Positions 441-57,113 of a stretch of DNA of 64,000 nucleotides are shown here, piece after piece. The notes under the pieces were generated by a model that made no database searches, had not been told where the DNA came from, and saw only the letters and a list, made by a program, of their open reading frames with translations. Position numbers and translations under genes: made by a program. Positions within the stretch are counted from its first letter, which is position 1. Each line of letters opens with the position of its first letter. Origin of the DNA: Clostridia bacterium (lineage in GTDB: Bacteria; Bacillota; Clostridia; UMGS1840); the NCBI GenBank assembly GCA_045541975.1, contig JAZQKB010000041.1:40-64039 (forward strand). The letters are read 5' to 3'.

Positions 441-517
<77 letters not shown>

Positions 518-2253: not shown

Positions 2254-3264
2254 TTACAGAGACCAAAATTTTAAAAACAGGGTGTAAATCCCCAAATACG
2301 GATCTGTTACCTGACCGCTTTTTAATTTGTAGTCAGTTTCGGCACAGAAACCGATTAACTGTTCTAATTTGGAGATAGGAATATTTTTTGCCTGTCTTAC
2401 GTACTTAGAAATCACAAAATCAGGCACGTTTTTGCCGAGCATCGGCTTGATTTCGGCAGAGGGAATCCGTTCCTCCTGACTGACTTTTGCCAAATACATT
2501 CCGGAAATATGGCGGGAGAGCAGGGTAAAAATCATTTGGGCAGGTGTTTTGGAAGGAGTCAGCTTCAGTTGGTTTAAAAGCTGATAGGCTTTTTCCTTTT
2601 GCCCTGTGACTAAAAATTCCGACAAATCAAAAATCACCGCCTGCATAGACTTTTGCAAAAATTGGTTCAGGATTTGCTCGGAAACGGTGTCAGTGTCTTG
2701 CATATAGGCGCAAACGGTGTCGATTAAATTCACTGTGGCATACAGATTGGGTTCTCCCTCTGTAATGATTTTTTCAATCAGAACAGCGGGGATTTTCTTT
2801 TGCCGTTTTGCAAATTCTCGATTGATAAAGGCACGCATATCTGCCTGGTTGGGATGCACACATTCCACAATTTCTCCCACGGTTTTTGCGGTATTCCAAA
2901 TGGAGGAACGCTTGTCCACTGCGGTTTCTCTTAAAATTAAAATGGTGAAGGGAGCAAGATTTTTCATTTGCTCGGTGAGTGCTTCCCGAAAATCGGCAGG
3001 AGCTTTCATGAGGTCTACCTGATTTAAGTAAACCACCTTGTATTCTGCCATCATAGGCGGTTGCTCCAGAGCGTTTCTCAGCTCGGTTTTTTCGGGTAGA
3101 TTCTGATAATGGAATAAATTAAAGCAAGCAAAATTATCATCCACAACACTCTGGATGATTCGATTGGCATAAAATTCTTTGAGGTAATCCTCTTCGCCGT
3201 AAAACAGATAGAGATTGGAGAAATTTTTTTCGGAAATCTTGCGGTTTAGTTCTTTTAATTCCAT
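2254..3264 (-). CDS. holA: DNA polymerase III delta subunit
   Basis: NLYLFYGEEDYL motif, ETDYKLKSG C-terminus, position directly after comEC. Start moved to ATG 3264 (MELKEL), which overlaps the comEC stop. Confidence 0.9.
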   Translation of the reverse strand: MELKELNRKISEKNFSNLYLFYGEEDYLKEFYANRIIQSVVDDNFACFNLFHYQNLPEKTELRNALEQPPMMAEYKVVYLNQVDLMKAPADFREALTEQMKNLAPFTILILRETAVDKRSSIWNTAKTVGEIVECVHPNQADMRAFINREFAKRQKKIPAVLIEKIITEGEPNLYATVNLIDTVCAYMQDTDTVSEQILNQFLQKSMQAVIFDLSEFLVTGQKEKAYQLLNQLKLTPSKTPAQMIFTLLSRHISGMYLAKVSQEERIPSAEIKPMLGKNVPDFVISKYVRQAKNIPISKLEQLIGFCAETDYKLKSGQVTDPYLGIYTLFLKFWSL

Positions 3265-5891: not shown

Positions 5892-6635
5892 TTATCGTAA
5901 TTTGACGGGTACTTGTTCCCCCGTTAAGCGTTTTGCGGAATTTGTAATTTCTTTCACGCATTTTTTATGTTTATCATCCAGAATCAACTTGCCCTGATTC
6001 TGGAAAGAAATCATGCTGTCTTCATACCGCCAGATGCCAAGCAGCGGCGTTCCTAAACGGTTTAGAATTTCATCCACGTTGGGCATCAGTTTTTTACGCA
6101 CCAATTTGGGATTGAATTTATTGATAATGACATAATTTTCTTGGATATTTACTTTGTTTGCTGCCGAAAGCACGCGGTCTGCATCCCGCATGGATGCAAA
6201 GTCGGGCGTTACCACCGTTACGGTGGCATCTGCTTTGGAAATACAATTTTTAAAGCCGGTTTCAATACCTGCGGGGGCATCCAGCAGAATATAGTCAAAC
6301 TCTTTGGCTGCCTCGGTCAGCATTTGGGAAAATTTTTCTTCCACCAGATCTTCTTTTTCAATGGTCTGGGATGCAGGCAGAAAATACAGTTCTCCGTATT
6401 GTTCAAAATGGTAGCAAGCGTCTTTCAACGGGATTTTCCCTTCATACACATCGGTCACGTCATACACGATCACGCTTTGCACCCCAAACACAATATCTAA
6501 GTTGCGAAGGCCGATATCCGTGTCAATAATGAGCACTTTTTTGCCCAGTTTTGCCAAAGCTGCAGACAAATTTGCAGCAACCGTGGTTTTTCCCACGCCG
6601 CCTTTTCCTGATGCAATTGCAACAATTTTGCCCAT
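5892..6635 (-). CDS. minD: Septum site-determining ATPase MinD
   Basis: Deviant Walker [32 protein letters not shown]. Start at ATG 6635 after a GGAGG RBS. Confidence 0.9.
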
Positions 6636-38800: not shown

Positions 38801-38845
38801 TCCGCTAAAATTATCTATGCTATGATGGAGGTGTTAGGCGTATGA
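35816..38845 (+). CDS. SLH-anchored scaffold-like surface protein (2x CBM-like, Ig-like domains, 2x helical module, cohesin-like beta-sandwich, 3x SLH)
   Basis: Signal peptide; GYYSVG..GYVYLEEGSN; LTVSFKETLDYETPYTLTVTGLK (Big_5/SbsA-like); GGGGY linker; FDDMADALWA..FRPMDNVTREEF, FGLGQKITRQDMA, FAPVSNATRAQSA SLH repeats. Confidence 0.75.
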   Translation: MNRNLKRVLSVALMAVMLAVNFVIPAMAATTVTVSYTDLLTYGSLTGRQGELYYETNASSVESASTKNGAYNPLEVWSNVNNAGLNIKASEWVRFEVTAETAGYYSVGMNAAVGATNGTDVYIRTESSITEKDLARTGTQYQYTDITDLGYVYLEEGSNYIYVDNKGGSYINFRSLTLTLDETADATDVAWLAPIASANEIAGLTVVYNDGYNQADVSEATLTFPVDIPLDGKYQVSVMGKAGGSNTVATDFGGDAKEATVSNSAYGYTALGVFPLTADEYTLTLDGFTNYSLAWVKVEYVGTYNTEIVSETISDGATVSRGTDSYVIELNDNIVSVDAATQITLASAEDTIETVATVEGKELTVSFKETLDYETPYTLTVTGLKGVYDEEAMADHVVTFTTADETNTDGTATVEVTDVTTSRENGTVTGIVKGSTGVGIKGRAVTVYDSYMGEVATGVSGDGGVFEIDFTITETVAGVHTYTVDSEYGATASAIVSYVSEAEELGILSLFASATTPEAVYSIFENYGEVLMVPTYAEDCDALANDALFLAHFMGKTFTAVSEVAPFYKKMLTLEGMNQATVGSRVDDYLTAEICELIGIASDKLDLVIINDPSNSNKISFAADIARDTNTNGASTSEEDFKGRIARLLDAWLLVKYQIEPTTLVLPTETISCRYASEIAIPIKFATAQTKVKTIVVTVTTAQAALLENAKAVVAGLAPVNAVISGNTATFTLDFEENAEKEYTEVGKISLQASIIDTHSIDVAATVSYRLTSDDNYADMDRPVTGDTVSATVTSSITETPRPVTGGGGYTAPPKEPEKEEEDTQKSKYFFDDMADALWAQDMVHALVGKGVISKNDERAFRPMDNVTREEFVKMLVTVVGTHNANATSSLTDVGANHWATSYIATAQELGIVQGNADGTFGLGQKITRQDMAVMVYRTFALLGIDLSAGSTAFADGGDIADYAKNAVSALEKQGIINGMGDGTFAPVSNATRAQSAKIIYAMMEVLGV

Positions 38846-41685
38846 TGAAAAGAAGCTTATCTCTGTTACTCGTTCTGATTCTGGCTTTAACTTCTTTTAG
38901 TCTGGTTGCTTCTGCAGCATCCGGTGCAAGCCAGGTGATTTCCCAGTTCAACATTATGCCCCAGAGCTGCTCTGCAGACTCCGAAAATTTAGTTACCCGT
39001 AGAGACTTTGCTTACACCATTGCCAATATTTTAGGCAGTGGTGAAGCAGCACCCCGTGCAACTGACTTTATTGATATTGGCGAAGATATTGAAGATTCCG
39101 GTTACATCTACTATGCAACTGTAAACGGTTTCTTAGCAACTACCGGCAATATGTTCTGCCCCGATGATCCAATCTCTTTGCATGATTTTAACGATGCAGT
39201 AATTAAACTGCTGGCTTATGAAACCATTGCAGAAGCAAACGGCGGCGGAAAAGACGGTGCGTTAAAAACCGTTAGAGATTTAAAAATTTACAATGGTGTT
39301 ACCATTAAAGATTATGAAACCGTAACCGTAAAACAGTACCGTCAGTTGGTATATAACTTGATGACTGCAGATATCACTGATTTCAGCTATAGCTATGATC
39401 AGGACGGCAACATCAATCTTTACAGAACCGGTACTACCAAAACCCTTTTATCTCAGTATTTTGGTATTTCTCGTTACTATGGTTCCATTACCGAAGTTAA
39501 TAATCAGAAACCCAGCGCAAAATTCAGAGTAACCAAAAACGTTTCTGAAGCAAATCCTGAAATGCTGGTTGTTGGTTCTGACTACTATTTCTTATCCAAT
39601 GGTACTGTAGACTTAAACTTCTATCAGAACATTCCGATTGAAATCTGGACCAATAAAGACGGTGTGATTGTTTATATTGCTCCCCAGCCCAATGTAGAAG
39701 TGTTCTACGATGTGATCTACAGCGTAAACAACGATACCAACCCCAATAATGCATATGCTTTGAATCTGGTTGATGAAATTGAATTCAACCGTGATACCAG
39801 AGAATATAAAATTGACAGTTCTGCAACAGTAAGTTATAACGGTGCTATTACCGGTATTCCCGTGAAACTGGCTGGCAAATATGCGAAAATTGTTTTAATT
39901 AACAACAAAGTAACCTTCATTGAAACCTGGAACCTCCAGGAAGGTGGTATGGTTTTAGAAATTAACAACAGCTACATTTCTTACATCAAAGGAGAAGCTG
40001 AAGATAAACTGAAGAGAATCGGTGAATACGACGATATCATGGTTATTATCGAAGGCAGAAGCACCGACCGTAACCAGATTAAACCCGGTAGTTTATTCTC
40101 CTATTATCAGACCGATAATCTTCTGGTAATCGTAGTTTCCGAAAAAACTCTTGTTGGTAACTTTGACAGTATGTCCACAGGTGAAATCGAAATCGGCAGA
40201 CATTTCTATCCCACCAGCGGTAATATTTATGTTTCCGAAGACGGCGAAAACTATCATGAAAATGATTTTGACAGCGTATTCGATACTCAGGTAACCTGCT
40301 ATGTGGATATTTTCGGTAACATTCGTTACATGAAATCCAACGGTTACTTAAACGAAGCAAACGTGTTTACCGCTTATATCCTCGGTTCTTCTCAGAAGGG
40401 CTTTGAAGATATCAAAATTAAAGTTCAGAAAATTTATCCCACTCTTGAAGAAGTGATTATTACCAAGCCTTCTGATTTGGCAGATTCTAAATATGTTGCA
40501 TATGACGATACTACTGCAAGCAGCTTGCGTGATACTTTCAGAAGTGCACAAAGCATACAACAAGCAGCATTGACTACGAGACAACAAGATATTGAAAGAG
40601 CGGCTGACTTTCTTTACAAGTTTACAGTGGATGAGGATGGCGTGATTACTCAGATTTCTGAACCTGATTTCTTTCTCCTATTTGGGGAGGAACACTACAT
40701 TCCGTTTACTCCCGAAGCTACCGATGCAGTACCTGCTCCTACTCCTACCAATGTACCCATTCCTCGTACACCAGTAAAAGATGCAATGTTAGACCATTTC
40801 TGCGGGGATGAACGTGCAATTTACTTCCCCTATACCACAGATAGCGAGAGCGGATATATCAACGGTTATAACCGAAATGCGACTGACGTAGCTTCCAATT
40901 GGACCTATTTCTGGATTCGTGACGAAAAATTTGTAGTATTAACCACGATTGACGGAGAATTAGGTGTTGTACAAAGATCTCATGGCGATATGGTTGGTCT
41001 TGGTACTTATACGTTGAGTCAGGGAAGTTCAGATGGTATCGTAAGAATTGCGATGTTGGCAGAACCCGGTGCATCTCAGCCCCAGTGCTGGTTCCTTTAC
41101 GGTGCAACTGATAAAATGCGTGGCGATACTTCTAGAGGAAAGACTGCCATGATCGACTCTGTAACTCAAAGATACGATTTGGAAGAAGATCGTAAGTACT
41201 ACGAAGTTGTTTTAGACAACGGTGATATGGTATGGAAGTTAGATACCGATGCTATTGACCATGAAACTTGGGATGTAGTGCATCAGAGAGGCGAAAATGA
41301 AGATCCTCCTGAAAAATTGGAAGCCGGCATGAGAGTTACCTATACTGGAAGAGCAGAATTTACGAGAAACGGAAGTTATATTACCGGCGTGGAAGAGTTC
41401 ATGCAGAGTACATCCGGTTCTGATCTGACTATGGATGACTGGCTTGCAACTCAGGGCAGTGGCCTTCTTCAGGGTACTGTTAAGAAAGTAACTGGTCAGA
41501 GACTGTACTTGGATAATGGTGCAGCTTATCATATCAGTGACAAGGGCGATCTGATTGGTCTGAAATTTAAAAATGGTAAAGTAGAAGAAGTAGACATTAG
41601 TACAACAGATATTTCTGCAGGTTCTACTGTTTACTACGGATCAACCTTTGGTGTTGGCAATATCTACGTGGAAGTTACTGACTAA
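38842..41685 (+). CDS. S-layer-type protein with N-terminal degenerate SLH repeats and beta-rich repeats
   Basis: Signal peptide; VTRRDFAY..TDFID..SGYIYYAT.NGFL..FCPDDPI..AVIKLLAY SLH-like region; start overlaps the previous stop (ATGA). Confidence 0.7.
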   Translation: MMKRSLSLLLVLILALTSFSLVASAASGASQVISQFNIMPQSCSADSENLVTRRDFAYTIANILGSGEAAPRATDFIDIGEDIEDSGYIYYATVNGFLATTGNMFCPDDPISLHDFNDAVIKLLAYETIAEANGGGKDGALKTVRDLKIYNGVTIKDYETVTVKQYRQLVYNLMTADITDFSYSYDQDGNINLYRTGTTKTLLSQYFGISRYYGSITEVNNQKPSAKFRVTKNVSEANPEMLVVGSDYYFLSNGTVDLNFYQNIPIEIWTNKDGVIVYIAPQPNVEVFYDVIYSVNNDTNPNNAYALNLVDEIEFNRDTREYKIDSSATVSYNGAITGIPVKLAGKYAKIVLINNKVTFIETWNLQEGGMVLEINNSYISYIKGEAEDKLKRIGEYDDIMVIIEGRSTDRNQIKPGSLFSYYQTDNLLVIVVSEKTLVGNFDSMSTGEIEIGRHFYPTSGNIYVSEDGENYHENDFDSVFDTQVTCYVDIFGNIRYMKSNGYLNEANVFTAYILGSSQKGFEDIKIKVQKIYPTLEEVIITKPSDLADSKYVAYDDTTASSLRDTFRSAQSIQQAALTTRQQDIERAADFLYKFTVDEDGVITQISEPDFFLLFGEEHYIPFTPEATDAVPAPTPTNVPIPRTPVKDAMLDHFCGDERAIYFPYTTDSESGYINGYNRNATDVASNWTYFWIRDEKFVVLTTIDGELGVVQRSHGDMVGLGTYTLSQGSSDGIVRIAMLAEPGASQPQCWFLYGATDKMRGDTSRGKTAMIDSVTQRYDLEEDRKYYEVVLDNGDMVWKLDTDAIDHETWDVVHQRGENEDPPEKLEAGMRVTYTGRAEFTRNGSYITGVEEFMQSTSGSDLTMDDWLATQGSGLLQGTVKKVTGQRLYLDNGAAYHISDKGDLIGLKFKNGKVEEVDISTTDISAGSTVYYGSTFGVGNIYVEVTD

Positions 41686-41862: not shown

Positions 41863-42540
41863 CTATCTATTCTTTTGTTTCTTTTCCATTCTTCTCCAGT
41901 TATAAAAACCGTAGAGGTCGTTTGCCAAAAACACCAAGAAACAAATCACAACTGAAAGGTAGTTATGGTCGGTTACCGATGCAATCCCCCACAACACAAT
42001 CAGCACAATGTCGTTGAAAGAATAAATCAGTGCAAAATAGGGACTTCGCCGTGCCGTCAGGTAGCAGGCACCAAAGCTGGTTGCAATTGACAGGGTACTC
42101 CACCAAAGATTGGGGGTATCCAATTCTTTTAGGATCAGGTAGAACAAACCCGTTACCAAAAGAGTTAAAACACCAAGAAACCACCATTCTCTTTTTTTGA
42201 TACGGTTTACCGCTACTTGTGATTTCTTCCCCTGAAAAGGGTTTTTCAGCCAGCAGATTAAAGCATAGACTGCCATGGGAACGGTCATGCCAAGATAGGT
42301 GATCATTTCGCTGTAGTATCGTGTCTGATAGGAAATGTAGCCATAAATAGAGCCAAACAGAATCATCATCACTTGTCCCATGGGATTCCCCTTGGCACAA
42401 AAAATCAGAGAAGTAACCCCAAGCAAAGAAGCAATCAACGTGAAAAAACTTTCCTGGCGAAATAACACATAGGATAGCAGGATAATGCCCATAGAGCTAC
42501 CCCATAGAACCCATTCTCGTTTTTTAAAATACTGAAACAT
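41863..42540 (-). CDS. pnuC: PnuC family (nicotinamide riboside-type) transporter
   Basis: LIFCAKGNP, YYSEMITY, LTARRS.Y..Y..NDIVLIVLW, NDLYGFYNW. Likely start at ATG 42540. Substrate not determinable from sequence. Confidence 0.85.
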   Translation of the reverse strand: MFQYFKKREWVLWGSSMGIILLSYVLFRQESFFTLIASLLGVTSLIFCAKGNPMGQVMMILFGSIYGYISYQTRYYSEMITYLGMTVPMAVYALICWLKNPFQGKKSQVAVNRIKKREWWFLGVLTLLVTGLFYLILKELDTPNLWWSTLSIATSFGACYLTARRSPYFALIYSFNDIVLIVLWGIASVTDHNYLSVVICFLVFLANDLYGFYNWRRMEKKQKNR

Positions 42541-42659
42541 TTTGATCATTCCTCCAACAAAAAAAGCACCCGCACATACAACTTCTAAAGACCTAACGCT
42601 GTATGCCGAATGCTTCCGCACGACTTCTACCCGGTGGCAGAAGTCTTTGATATTCGATT
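42541..42659 (-). promoter_or_regulatory. Structured 5' leader/attenuator upstream of pnuC (unrecognised family)
   Basis: Hairpin GACTTCTGCC-ACCG-GGTAGAAGTC; GTGC-GGAA-GCAT; terminator GCATTCG.GCATACAGC/GTTGTATGT.G.CGGGTGC followed by T7. Confidence 0.65.
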
Positions 42660-42665
42660 AATAAC

Positions 42666-42694
42666 AGTATAGCATGATTTTTTGAAGTTGTCAA
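42666..42694 (-). promoter_or_regulatory. sigmaA promoter of pnuC
   Basis: TTGACA-17 bp-TATACT. Confidence 0.85.
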
Positions 42695-42697
42695 GCC

Positions 42698-43225
42698 TTA
42701 AAACTGATTGTAGGTGACAACTTCCTCCATGGGGCGTACCTCTTCGTGACGGGGATTGGGGACGCTGTCTTTGGCAGGGTATCCCATCACCAACAGTGCC
42801 ACGGGTTCCAACTCATCGGGAATCTGATAGGACTCTCTCATTGCCACGGGATCAAAGCTCATCACCCAGCAGGAGCCGATGCCCAATTCCCAGGCACCCA
42901 GCATCAGATGAGTGGTCACAATGGCACAGTCCACGGGAGCGGATTTTGCACCGTCATACCGACGGGTCCAGCCTTCCTCCTTATGATAGCAGATTAACAT
43001 GGCCAACGGTGCATCAAAATGACTTCTGGTGCAGTTTTTAAGTTTCATGATATTTTCATCAGAATCTAACACCAAAATTCTCTGAGGCTGAATATTACAG
43101 CCGGTGGGGGCAATATGCCCGTAGGCTAAAATCTTTTCGATGATTTCCGAAGGAACCTTTTTTTGTTGAAAATTTCTCACTGAGTAACGGCTTTTTGCAA
43201 ATTCAAAAAAATTCATTTCTTTCAT
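42698..43225 (-). CDS. Nitroreductase family protein
   Basis: SRYSVRNF, APTGCNIQP, LGIGSCWV, ALLVMGYP. Start at ATG 43225 after AAGGAG. Confidence 0.92.
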   Translation of the reverse strand: MKEMNFFEFAKSRYSVRNFQQKKVPSEIIEKILAYGHIAPTGCNIQPQRILVLDSDENIMKLKNCTRSHFDAPLAMLICYHKEEGWTRRYDGAKSAPVDCAIVTTHLMLGAWELGIGSCWVMSFDPVAMRESYQIPDELEPVALLVMGYPAKDSVPNPRHEEVRPMEEVVTYNQF

Positions 43226-57021: not shown

Positions 57022-57113
57022 GGAGATGTACCCAAGTGGTTGAAGGGTCCGGATTCGAAATCCGGTAGGTCGGTTTTGCCGGCGCTAGGGTTCAAATCCC
57101 TACATCTCCGCCA
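57022..57113 (+). tRNA. tRNA-Ser(CGA), intact
   Basis: Acceptor GGAGATG/CATCTCC, discriminator G, CCA; anticodon stem CCGGA/TCCGG with loop TTCGAAA; long variable arm GTCGG-TTTTG-CCGGC; T-arm TAGGG-TTCAAAT-CCCTA. Confidence 0.95.

Follow-up and report, generated by a model that had tools for sequence, protein, structure and literature searches.

A very probable guanidine-IV riboswitch in the leader of a PnuC-like transporter gene from a Clostridia bacterium

The minus strand of the window, the whole stretch of 64,000 nucleotides of Clostridia bacterium DNA analyzed here, carries at 42659..42541 a leader that is very probably a guanidine-IV riboswitch (mepA/GGAM-1), with a PnuC-like transporter gene under its control through antitermination of transcription. 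Membership in this class is assigned in our analysis from a match in sequence and structure, from covariation, and from gene context. Both the class of the leader and its association with PnuC genes are already known and not new. An earlier, sequence-only reading of the same DNA had proposed a cis-acting riboswitch of a new class, acting through an intrinsic terminator on a PnuC-family gene. The riboswitch, the terminator, and the gene family stand, and the new class falls away because the core of the RNA matches guanidine-IV; this strong match to a known family emerged from the literature and from profile scoring, and not from Rfam. Guanidine binding by the PnuC-associated sub-group is extrapolated, because the validated RNAs come from leaders of sugE/emrE and mepA genes.

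Promoter, fold, and conservation of the leader

The leader is headed by a promoter of the form TTGACA-17-TATACT, which matches 11 of 12 consensus positions, has a TG within its 17-nt spacer, and is also kept among relatives in the genus (see Table 1 for the positions of all elements). Transcription would start near 42659, as judged from the -10 element. The leader folds with a minimum free energy of -42.3 kcal/mol (z = -4.67), and none of 200 shuffled sequences is as stable. A near-consensus promoter and a leader of about 120 nt had both been claimed from the sequence, and both are found on the minus strand, together with the 10-bp hairpin, the GNRA mini-hairpin, and the long terminator with its U7 tract just before the Shine-Dalgarno sequence that the same reading had described; by our fold, this terminator comprises 17 bp.

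Upstream of the promoter lies a co-oriented nitroreductase-family open reading frame (PF00881; 42698..43228, minus strand) that ends 4 nt before the -35 hexamer, and this neighbor is also present in several relatives from the genus (L002-L007). A terminator scan called no terminator between this reading frame and the riboswitch promoter. The leader terminator was itself missed by a simple terminator scan, for the sole reason that its loop exceeds 8 nt. At the other end of the transcription unit, a 947-aa open reading frame with a signal-peptide-like N-terminus (38842..41685, plus strand) is oriented convergently with the PnuC-like gene, facing its 3' end, so that the riboswitch transcript is monocistronic here.

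Table 1. Elements of the leader and the downstream gene, in window coordinates
Feature	Position	Strand	Basis or remark
-35 hexamer TTGACA	42689..42694	minus	leader promoter, 4 nt past the stop of the upstream nitroreductase reading frame
-10 hexamer TATACT	42666..42671	minus	TG upstream (extended -10); consensus comparison
Leader, ~120 nt	about 42659..42541	minus	start inferred from the -10
P1 hairpin GACUUCUGCC-ACCG-GGUAGAAGUC	42622..42645	minus	10 bp; fold
ACC of the P1 loop	42633..42635	minus	5' strand of the kissing loop ("P2" or pseudoknot in the literature); pairs with GGU 42591..42593
Linker mini-hairpin GUGC-GGAA-GCAU	42610..42621	minus	GCAU also begins the 5' basal strand of the terminator
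Intrinsic terminator hairpin	42564..42615	minus	17 bp (basal 9 bp plus upper 8 bp), 15-nt loop
GGU of the terminator loop	42591..42593	minus	3' strand of the kissing loop; equivalent to G65, G66, and U67 in the 95 Lla construct
GAAG at the 3' end of the terminator loop	42582..42585	minus	first G corresponds to Lla G72, the "D1" position
U7 tract of the terminator	42559..42565	minus	sequence
Shine-Dalgarno GGAGG	42551..42555	minus	10 nt ahead of the ATG at 42540
PnuC-like transporter gene, 225 aa	41863..42540	minus	regulated gene; ATG at 42540

The elements between the promoter and the Shine-Dalgarno sequence form a split aptamer. Its 5' half consists of the distal CUGCC/GGUAG pairs of P1 and the ACCG loop that they close, and its 3' half is the 15-nt loop of the terminator, GUUAGGUCUUUAGAA. 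This loop is carried on a stem built from an upper segment, CAUACAGC/GUUGUAUG, and a basal segment, AAGCAUUCG/CGGGUGCUU, such that CGUUAGGUCUUUAGAAG sits inside the terminator hairpin, with the U7 tract next.

When 61 related genomes were searched at the DNA level, 14 homologous leaders emerged, some of them from other families of the same class, and all 14 precede PnuC-like genes. Among these leaders the stems vary by compensation. The top and loop of P1, CUGCCACCGGGUAG (42640..42627), are invariant in all 14, as are CGUUAGGUCUU and GAAG in the terminator loop; the conserved core comprises two invariant blocks, CUGCC-ACCG-GGUAG in P1 and CGUUAGGUC…GAAG in the terminator loop. A covariance model trained on the 14 leaders, when run on 399 genomes of the class, matched in 89 of them, representing 57 of 216 genera. 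Twelve orthologous pnuC-like loci, the closest ones, were fetched independently and belong to uncultured Clostridia, Oscillospiraceae, and Acutalibacteraceae metagenome-assembled genomes from animal and human guts; the motif was found directly upstream in 10 of them. The conservation of orthologous pnuC leaders, which the earlier reading had proposed as a check, is in this way borne out.

In an alignment of 97 covariance-model matches, standard pairs make up 97% of the cells and 22 of the 26 pairs are changed on both sides, values that none of 500 shuffles reach; when the partner columns are slid by 1 to 3 positions, pairing falls to 32-48%. Compensatory changes are seen at all six modeled pairs of P1 and at 15 of the 17 pairs of the terminator stem. 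The variable pair of the ACC:GGU helix is A:U in 76 sequences, G:C in 11, C:G in one, and G:U in two, and is unpaired in four. Such covariation between the A of ACCG and the U in GGUC speaks for a loop-loop (kissing) helix of 3 bp, ACC:GGU. A kissing loop of more than 3 bp was rejected, the adjoining positions being C·C and G·A. Two further pairings had been put forward as alternative folds, one between the 5' AAAGAC and GUCUUU of the terminator loop and the other between GACUUCU and AGAAGUU; we rejected both as conserved features because the 5' segment is kept only within the genus and is missing from other families.

Match to the guanidine-IV class

Searches against Rfam 15 gave no assignment of the leader. 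With cmscan at gathering thresholds, no riboswitch matched anywhere in the window, and the only matches at this level are two tRNA genes at 444..517 (minus strand) and 57022..57110 (plus strand). At E-values of up to 10, the region 42400..42800 produced only a terminator-like match of 15 bits to Ref64. The Rfam models for NAD+-I, NAD+-II, TPP, FMN, purine, preQ1, and HMP-PP riboswitches do not match the window leader, in agreement with the absence of TPP, FMN, purine, and NAD+ signatures noted earlier from the sequence. Five homologous loci, including ones in SMR and MATE contexts, likewise gave nothing relevant at E-values of up to 1. Because copies associated with SMR and MATE genes are unmatched as well, we conclude that Rfam 15 is without a guanidine-IV model, and it is for this reason that the leader looked new. 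A conserved, covarying leader that is negative in Rfam can belong to a class published in 2020, and an Rfam-negative result is not equivalent to novelty; other Rfam-negative leaders embedded in terminators may also be guanidine-IV riboswitches.

A literature search for pnuC in combination with riboswitches turned up only the unrelated NAD+-II class. The clue to the identity of the leader was instead the presence of MATE and NimA genes downstream of homologues, followed by the guanidine-IV paper that names PnuC. Three validated RNAs of this class have the same core as the window leader: CUGCCGCCGGGUAG … CGUUAGGCCAUAGAAG in the 92 Rti construct, CUCCACCGGGAG … CAGUAGGUCUGAGAAG in the 95/147 Lla construct, and UUGCCACCGGGUAG … UUUAGGUCUUAGUAGG in C. 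botulinum riboG. P1 of the window is identical to that of 92 Rti apart from the covarying A/G, and also matches C. botulinum riboG. When scored by nhmmer with a profile made from 96 homologues, the validated RNAs reach 38.7 bits (Rti, E 2e-11), 21.5 bits (Lla, E 5e-6), and 20.8 bits (C. botulinum, E 7e-8), and the top score among 400 shuffles is 4.8 bits. The window RNA shares with guanidine-IV the P1 core YUGCC-RCCG-GGUAR, the terminator loop UUAGGYC…GAAG, the covarying 3-bp loop-loop pairing, and the U-tract, as well as the placement before PnuC, MATE, SMR, and NimA genes and the occurrence in Firmicutes/Clostridia; in the core, there are no differences.

Positions that matter for function in the class can be traced into the window. 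The Lla mutants G66C and U67A lose the guanidine response, and the G72C and G62C mutants are inactive (PMC7736828). The window keeps G66, U67, and G72, at 42592, 42591, and 42585, respectively. The equivalent of G62, which is second in the terminator loop, is a U in the window and likewise in the validated 92 Rti (GUUAGG); by this comparison, the substitution lies within the variation of the class. Two mepA loop positions conserved at more than 97%, G26 and A63 (M1 and M2 of Salvail et al.), were compared by block only, and all such conserved blocks are intact in the window.

Several other riboswitches resemble the leader in part. NAD+-II (the pnuC motif of Streptococcus) is also located upstream of PnuC-family genes, but its fold is unrelated, a hairpin with an internal loop joined by a pseudoknot to the Shine-Dalgarno sequence, and it acts as a translational OFF switch and controls true nicotinamide riboside transporters (PMC7749635). 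In addition, its Rfam model gives no match to the leader even at E-values of up to 10. The HMP-PP riboswitch (thiS motif) has part of its aptamer embedded in an intrinsic terminator, as remarked by Salvail et al. (bioRxiv 10.1101/2020.10.21.349134), but differs from the window RNA in sequence, ligand, and gene set, and has no Rfam match here. In guanidine-II (mini-ykkC), two hairpin loops kiss in a ligand-dependent manner, whereas the loops are of the ACGR type and the switch acts on translation.

The closest look-alike is Gd4v, a variant of guanidine-IV that has two hairpins, the same pseudoknot, and half of its aptamer inside the terminator. Two features, D1 and D2, strictly set the two apart: at the D1 position, where guanidine-IV has an invariant G, Gd4v never has a G, and D2 is an extra hairpin (PMC9788692). 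The Gd4v construct 95 Csp carries CAAG and an inserted hairpin, whereas in the window GAAG is present and is separated from GGUC by UUUA only. Gd4v is located before genes of the transaminase, YitT, and GNAT types and in no case before sugE, and PnuC is listed only for guanidine-IV (PMC9788692). Gd4v constructs score 3.6 bits or nothing against the 96-homologue profile. Judged by these sequence comparisons, the window RNA is a canonical guanidine-IV riboswitch and not a member of Gd4v.

Proposed antitermination and the linker hairpin

In single-round transcription, guanidine raises read-through of guanidine-IV RNAs, with EC50 values of 260 uM (L. lactis) and 69 uM (C. botulinum). Reporters, too, are switched on by guanidine, making the class an ON switch (PMC7736828). 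In-line probing and smFRET show that guanidine, together with Mg2+, stabilizes the loop-loop helix. Binding is possible only before the terminator stem is completed; when the basal stem closes, the linker becomes shorter and the kissing loop is broken.

By analogy with these class members, the window leader would be an ON antiterminator. Its aptamer would be split between the P1 loop with its closing pairs (CUGCC-ACCG-GGUAG) and the terminator loop (GUUAGGUC…GAAG). The scheme has RNA polymerase at a point where the upper stem is made and the 3' basal strand is not yet transcribed. Guanidinium, at tens to hundreds of micromolar, would then stabilize the kissing loop between ACC (42635..42633) and GGU (42593..42591), and this docked state would keep the 9 basal pairs open, allowing the polymerase to read through into the gene. 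Without guanidine, the full 17-bp hairpin would form ahead of the U7 tract and transcription would stop at about 42559.

Between P1 and the terminator, the window copy and most PnuC-associated copies carry a short, covarying linker hairpin, in contrast to the flexible linker of guanidine-IV descriptions; the main texts of the mechanistic papers present the linker as flexible or single-stranded and leave a helix unmentioned, although their figures might draw one. The GUGC-GGAA-GCAU element had been predicted to compete for the first bases of the terminator, and it both competes for them and covaries with the terminator strand. MAFFT fails to align the hairpin in register, so the linker helix was judged by shuffling and by strand swapping. 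Among the 82 homologues with a linker of at least 6 nt, 68 can pair it by at least 4 bp with the 5' basal strand of the terminator, with a mean z of -3.7 relative to linker shuffles and an average of 4.8 cross pairs versus 1.8. A linker combined with its own terminator strand gives -4.09 kcal/mol, versus -1.86 kcal/mol for swapped strands (Wilcoxon p about 1e-12), and the helix takes covarying forms such as GGUGCC/GGCACC, GGUAC/GUACC, GACGC/GCGUC, and GAGUUUUU/AAAAACUC.

We suggest that this hairpin may serve as an anti-terminator in the PnuC sub-group. It would sequester the first four bases of the 5' basal strand of the terminator, in the manner of a small classical anti-terminator, and the docked aptamer could shield the linker helix from invasion by the terminator 3' strand. 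If this is true, then the PnuC sub-group would switch by competition between alternative helices aided by the kissing loop, and not just by the steric mechanism based on linker length that has been proposed for the C. botulinum RNA. The covarying linker hairpin would be a small refinement of an unusual switching mechanism and is possibly a new detail.

The hairpin is unevenly distributed over gene contexts, being found in 59 of 67 PnuC copies, 2 of 11 MATE copies, neither of the two NimA copies, and not in the single SMR copy. In these counts the PnuC-associated sub-group is over-represented, since the covariance model was seeded from such copies, and related sequences inflate the numbers. A feature peculiar to the sub-group in this way, compared with its rarity before MATE genes, would fit a guanidine-IV architecture with shifted specificity, in which the PnuC-associated copies respond to a derivative of guanidine or to some other small cation. 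Some room for such a shift comes from the association with PnuC being almost unique to class IV: under guanidine-I, -II, and -III, PnuC essentially never occurs, its share being 0.09% or less (PMC7736828). Gd4v, which appears to sense something other than guanidine, provides a precedent, and the binding of guanidine by the PnuC-associated copies is, as stated above, an extrapolation. The hairpin is, however, also present in the validated L. lactis sugE riboswitch (it is absent from the Rti and C. botulinum RNAs), and the conserved loop nucleotides are those of 92 Rti, a validated binder. The window RNA has the D1 G and lacks the extra D2 hairpin, the same core stands before SMR (Gdx-type) and MATE genes in the homologue set, and the profile rejects Gd4v RNAs. 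Taken with this evidence, shifted specificity is an improbable alternative to guanidine sensing.

Gene context and the PnuC-like protein

On a first look, the genes downstream of the homologues are mostly PnuC-like, with about ten MATE genes of 440 aa and two NimA/PNPOx-like genes; a classification of the reading frames by regular expressions gave 67 PnuC and 11 MATE genes, and Pfam spot checks confirmed PnuC, MatE, Pyridox_ox_2 (NimA), and SMR. This gene set corresponds to the top four classes in Table S4 of Lenkeit et al., in which GGAM-1 lies upstream of SugE in 31%, PnuC in 25.2%, MATE in 22.6%, and NimA in 10.5% of cases (PMC7736828). Lenkeit et al. 2020 suggested that the PnuC- and MATE-class genes encode putative guanidine exporters (PMC7736828). 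Among the sampled Clostridia genomes, roughly one in five has putative guanidine detoxification genes marked by the motif.

This context also bears on the view that the RNA senses no ligand and represents either protein-mediated attenuation or a plain terminator of the nitroreductase gene. A strong terminator does lie between two co-oriented genes, a location in which such hairpins are common. The promoter, however, is upstream of the terminator and not downstream of it, and across families the motif follows the downstream gene, whichever gene precedes it. A plain terminator would need neither invariant loop sequences nor loop-loop covariation, and members of the class bind guanidine without a protein. 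We regard both variants as very unlikely, and regulation by a guanidine-IV riboswitch as the preferred reading.

The product of the regulated gene belongs to the PnuC family, as had been stated from the sequence: the reading frame matches PF04973 with 123.9 bits (8.7e-36) and TIGR01528 with 82.3 bits, above the cut-off of 42.45, and aligns to PDB 4QTN with an E-value of 6.9e-13. In the Pnu vitamin transporters (PnuC, PnuT, and PnuX), the ligand is bound through the motif WxxW(x)3[D/N] in TM6 (PMC5749112). The corresponding segment of 4QTN, WALWIVVN, aligns to ALIYSFND in the window protein, which does not conform to the motif. Over the motif columns of 61 riboswitch-associated homologues (loci L006-L102), the alanine is kept in 58, the tyrosine in 60, and the asparagine and the aspartate in all 61. 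The alignment defines a clade without the first tryptophan, in which AxxYxxND takes the place of the vitamin motif and Asn-Asp is invariant. Such a motif would suit a substrate that is not a vitamin and is possibly cationic.

The label "nicotinamide riboside transporter" attached to TIGR01528 is probably over-specific for the window protein and its homologues; we doubt it because a probable guanidine-responsive ON switch lies upstream and because the ligand-binding tryptophans are missing. Since the equivalog cut-off of TIGR01528 is passed, the automatic annotation of many homologues in gut Clostridia is probably misleading. A search of the available literature returned no paper that characterizes the PnuC-like protein associated with guanidine. 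A new riboswitch class that senses nicotinamide riboside, NMN, thiamine, riboflavin, or a nucleoside and represses a vitamin importer by feedback, as the earlier choice of vitamin and nucleoside ligands implied, could appeal to the PnuC-family gene with its TIGR01528 score and to the lack of an Rfam match, but is scarcely credible given that the core and the profile match a described, biochemically validated class, that the same RNA precedes MATE, SMR, and NimA genes with no link to vitamins, that the ligand-binding tryptophans of WxxW are missing from the PnuC-like clade, and that the class switches ON, contrary to the feedback-OFF control that a vitamin importer would imply.

Returning to guanidine-IV as the class of the leader, we tentatively put forward a joint proposal, whose chances we place somewhat below even: that the linker of the PnuC sub-group is a conserved anti-terminator hairpin, and that the PnuC-like clade consists of guanidinium transporters built on the SWEET-like Pnu fold. 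If true, guanidinium transport would add a new class of substrate to the Pnu family.

A few copies of the motif deviate from the usual arrangement. Locus L066 (genome G100) has two near-identical riboswitch copies on one strand, 2.9 kb apart, of which the first (3048..3140) stands before an apparently disrupted reading frame and the second (5938..6030) before an intact PnuC-like one. A degenerate copy with 45 bits in L101 (3079..3167, genome G087) has kept the linker hairpin and the terminator but neither the P1 loop nor the GGU; its position is 200 nt upstream of a 448-aa lipoprotein-like reading frame and 2.4 kb from an intact copy. In L083, a divergent copy (3077..3166; GGACAG / AGUCAGGGUUUUGAAA, 61 bits) precedes a pseudouridine synthase gene, and the copy in L074 (3062..3152) precedes a gene for an ECF-type sigma-70 factor. 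A weak copy with 42 bits in L103 (3031..3112) is found before what, by eye only, resembles the N-terminus of a pyruvate phosphate dikinase.
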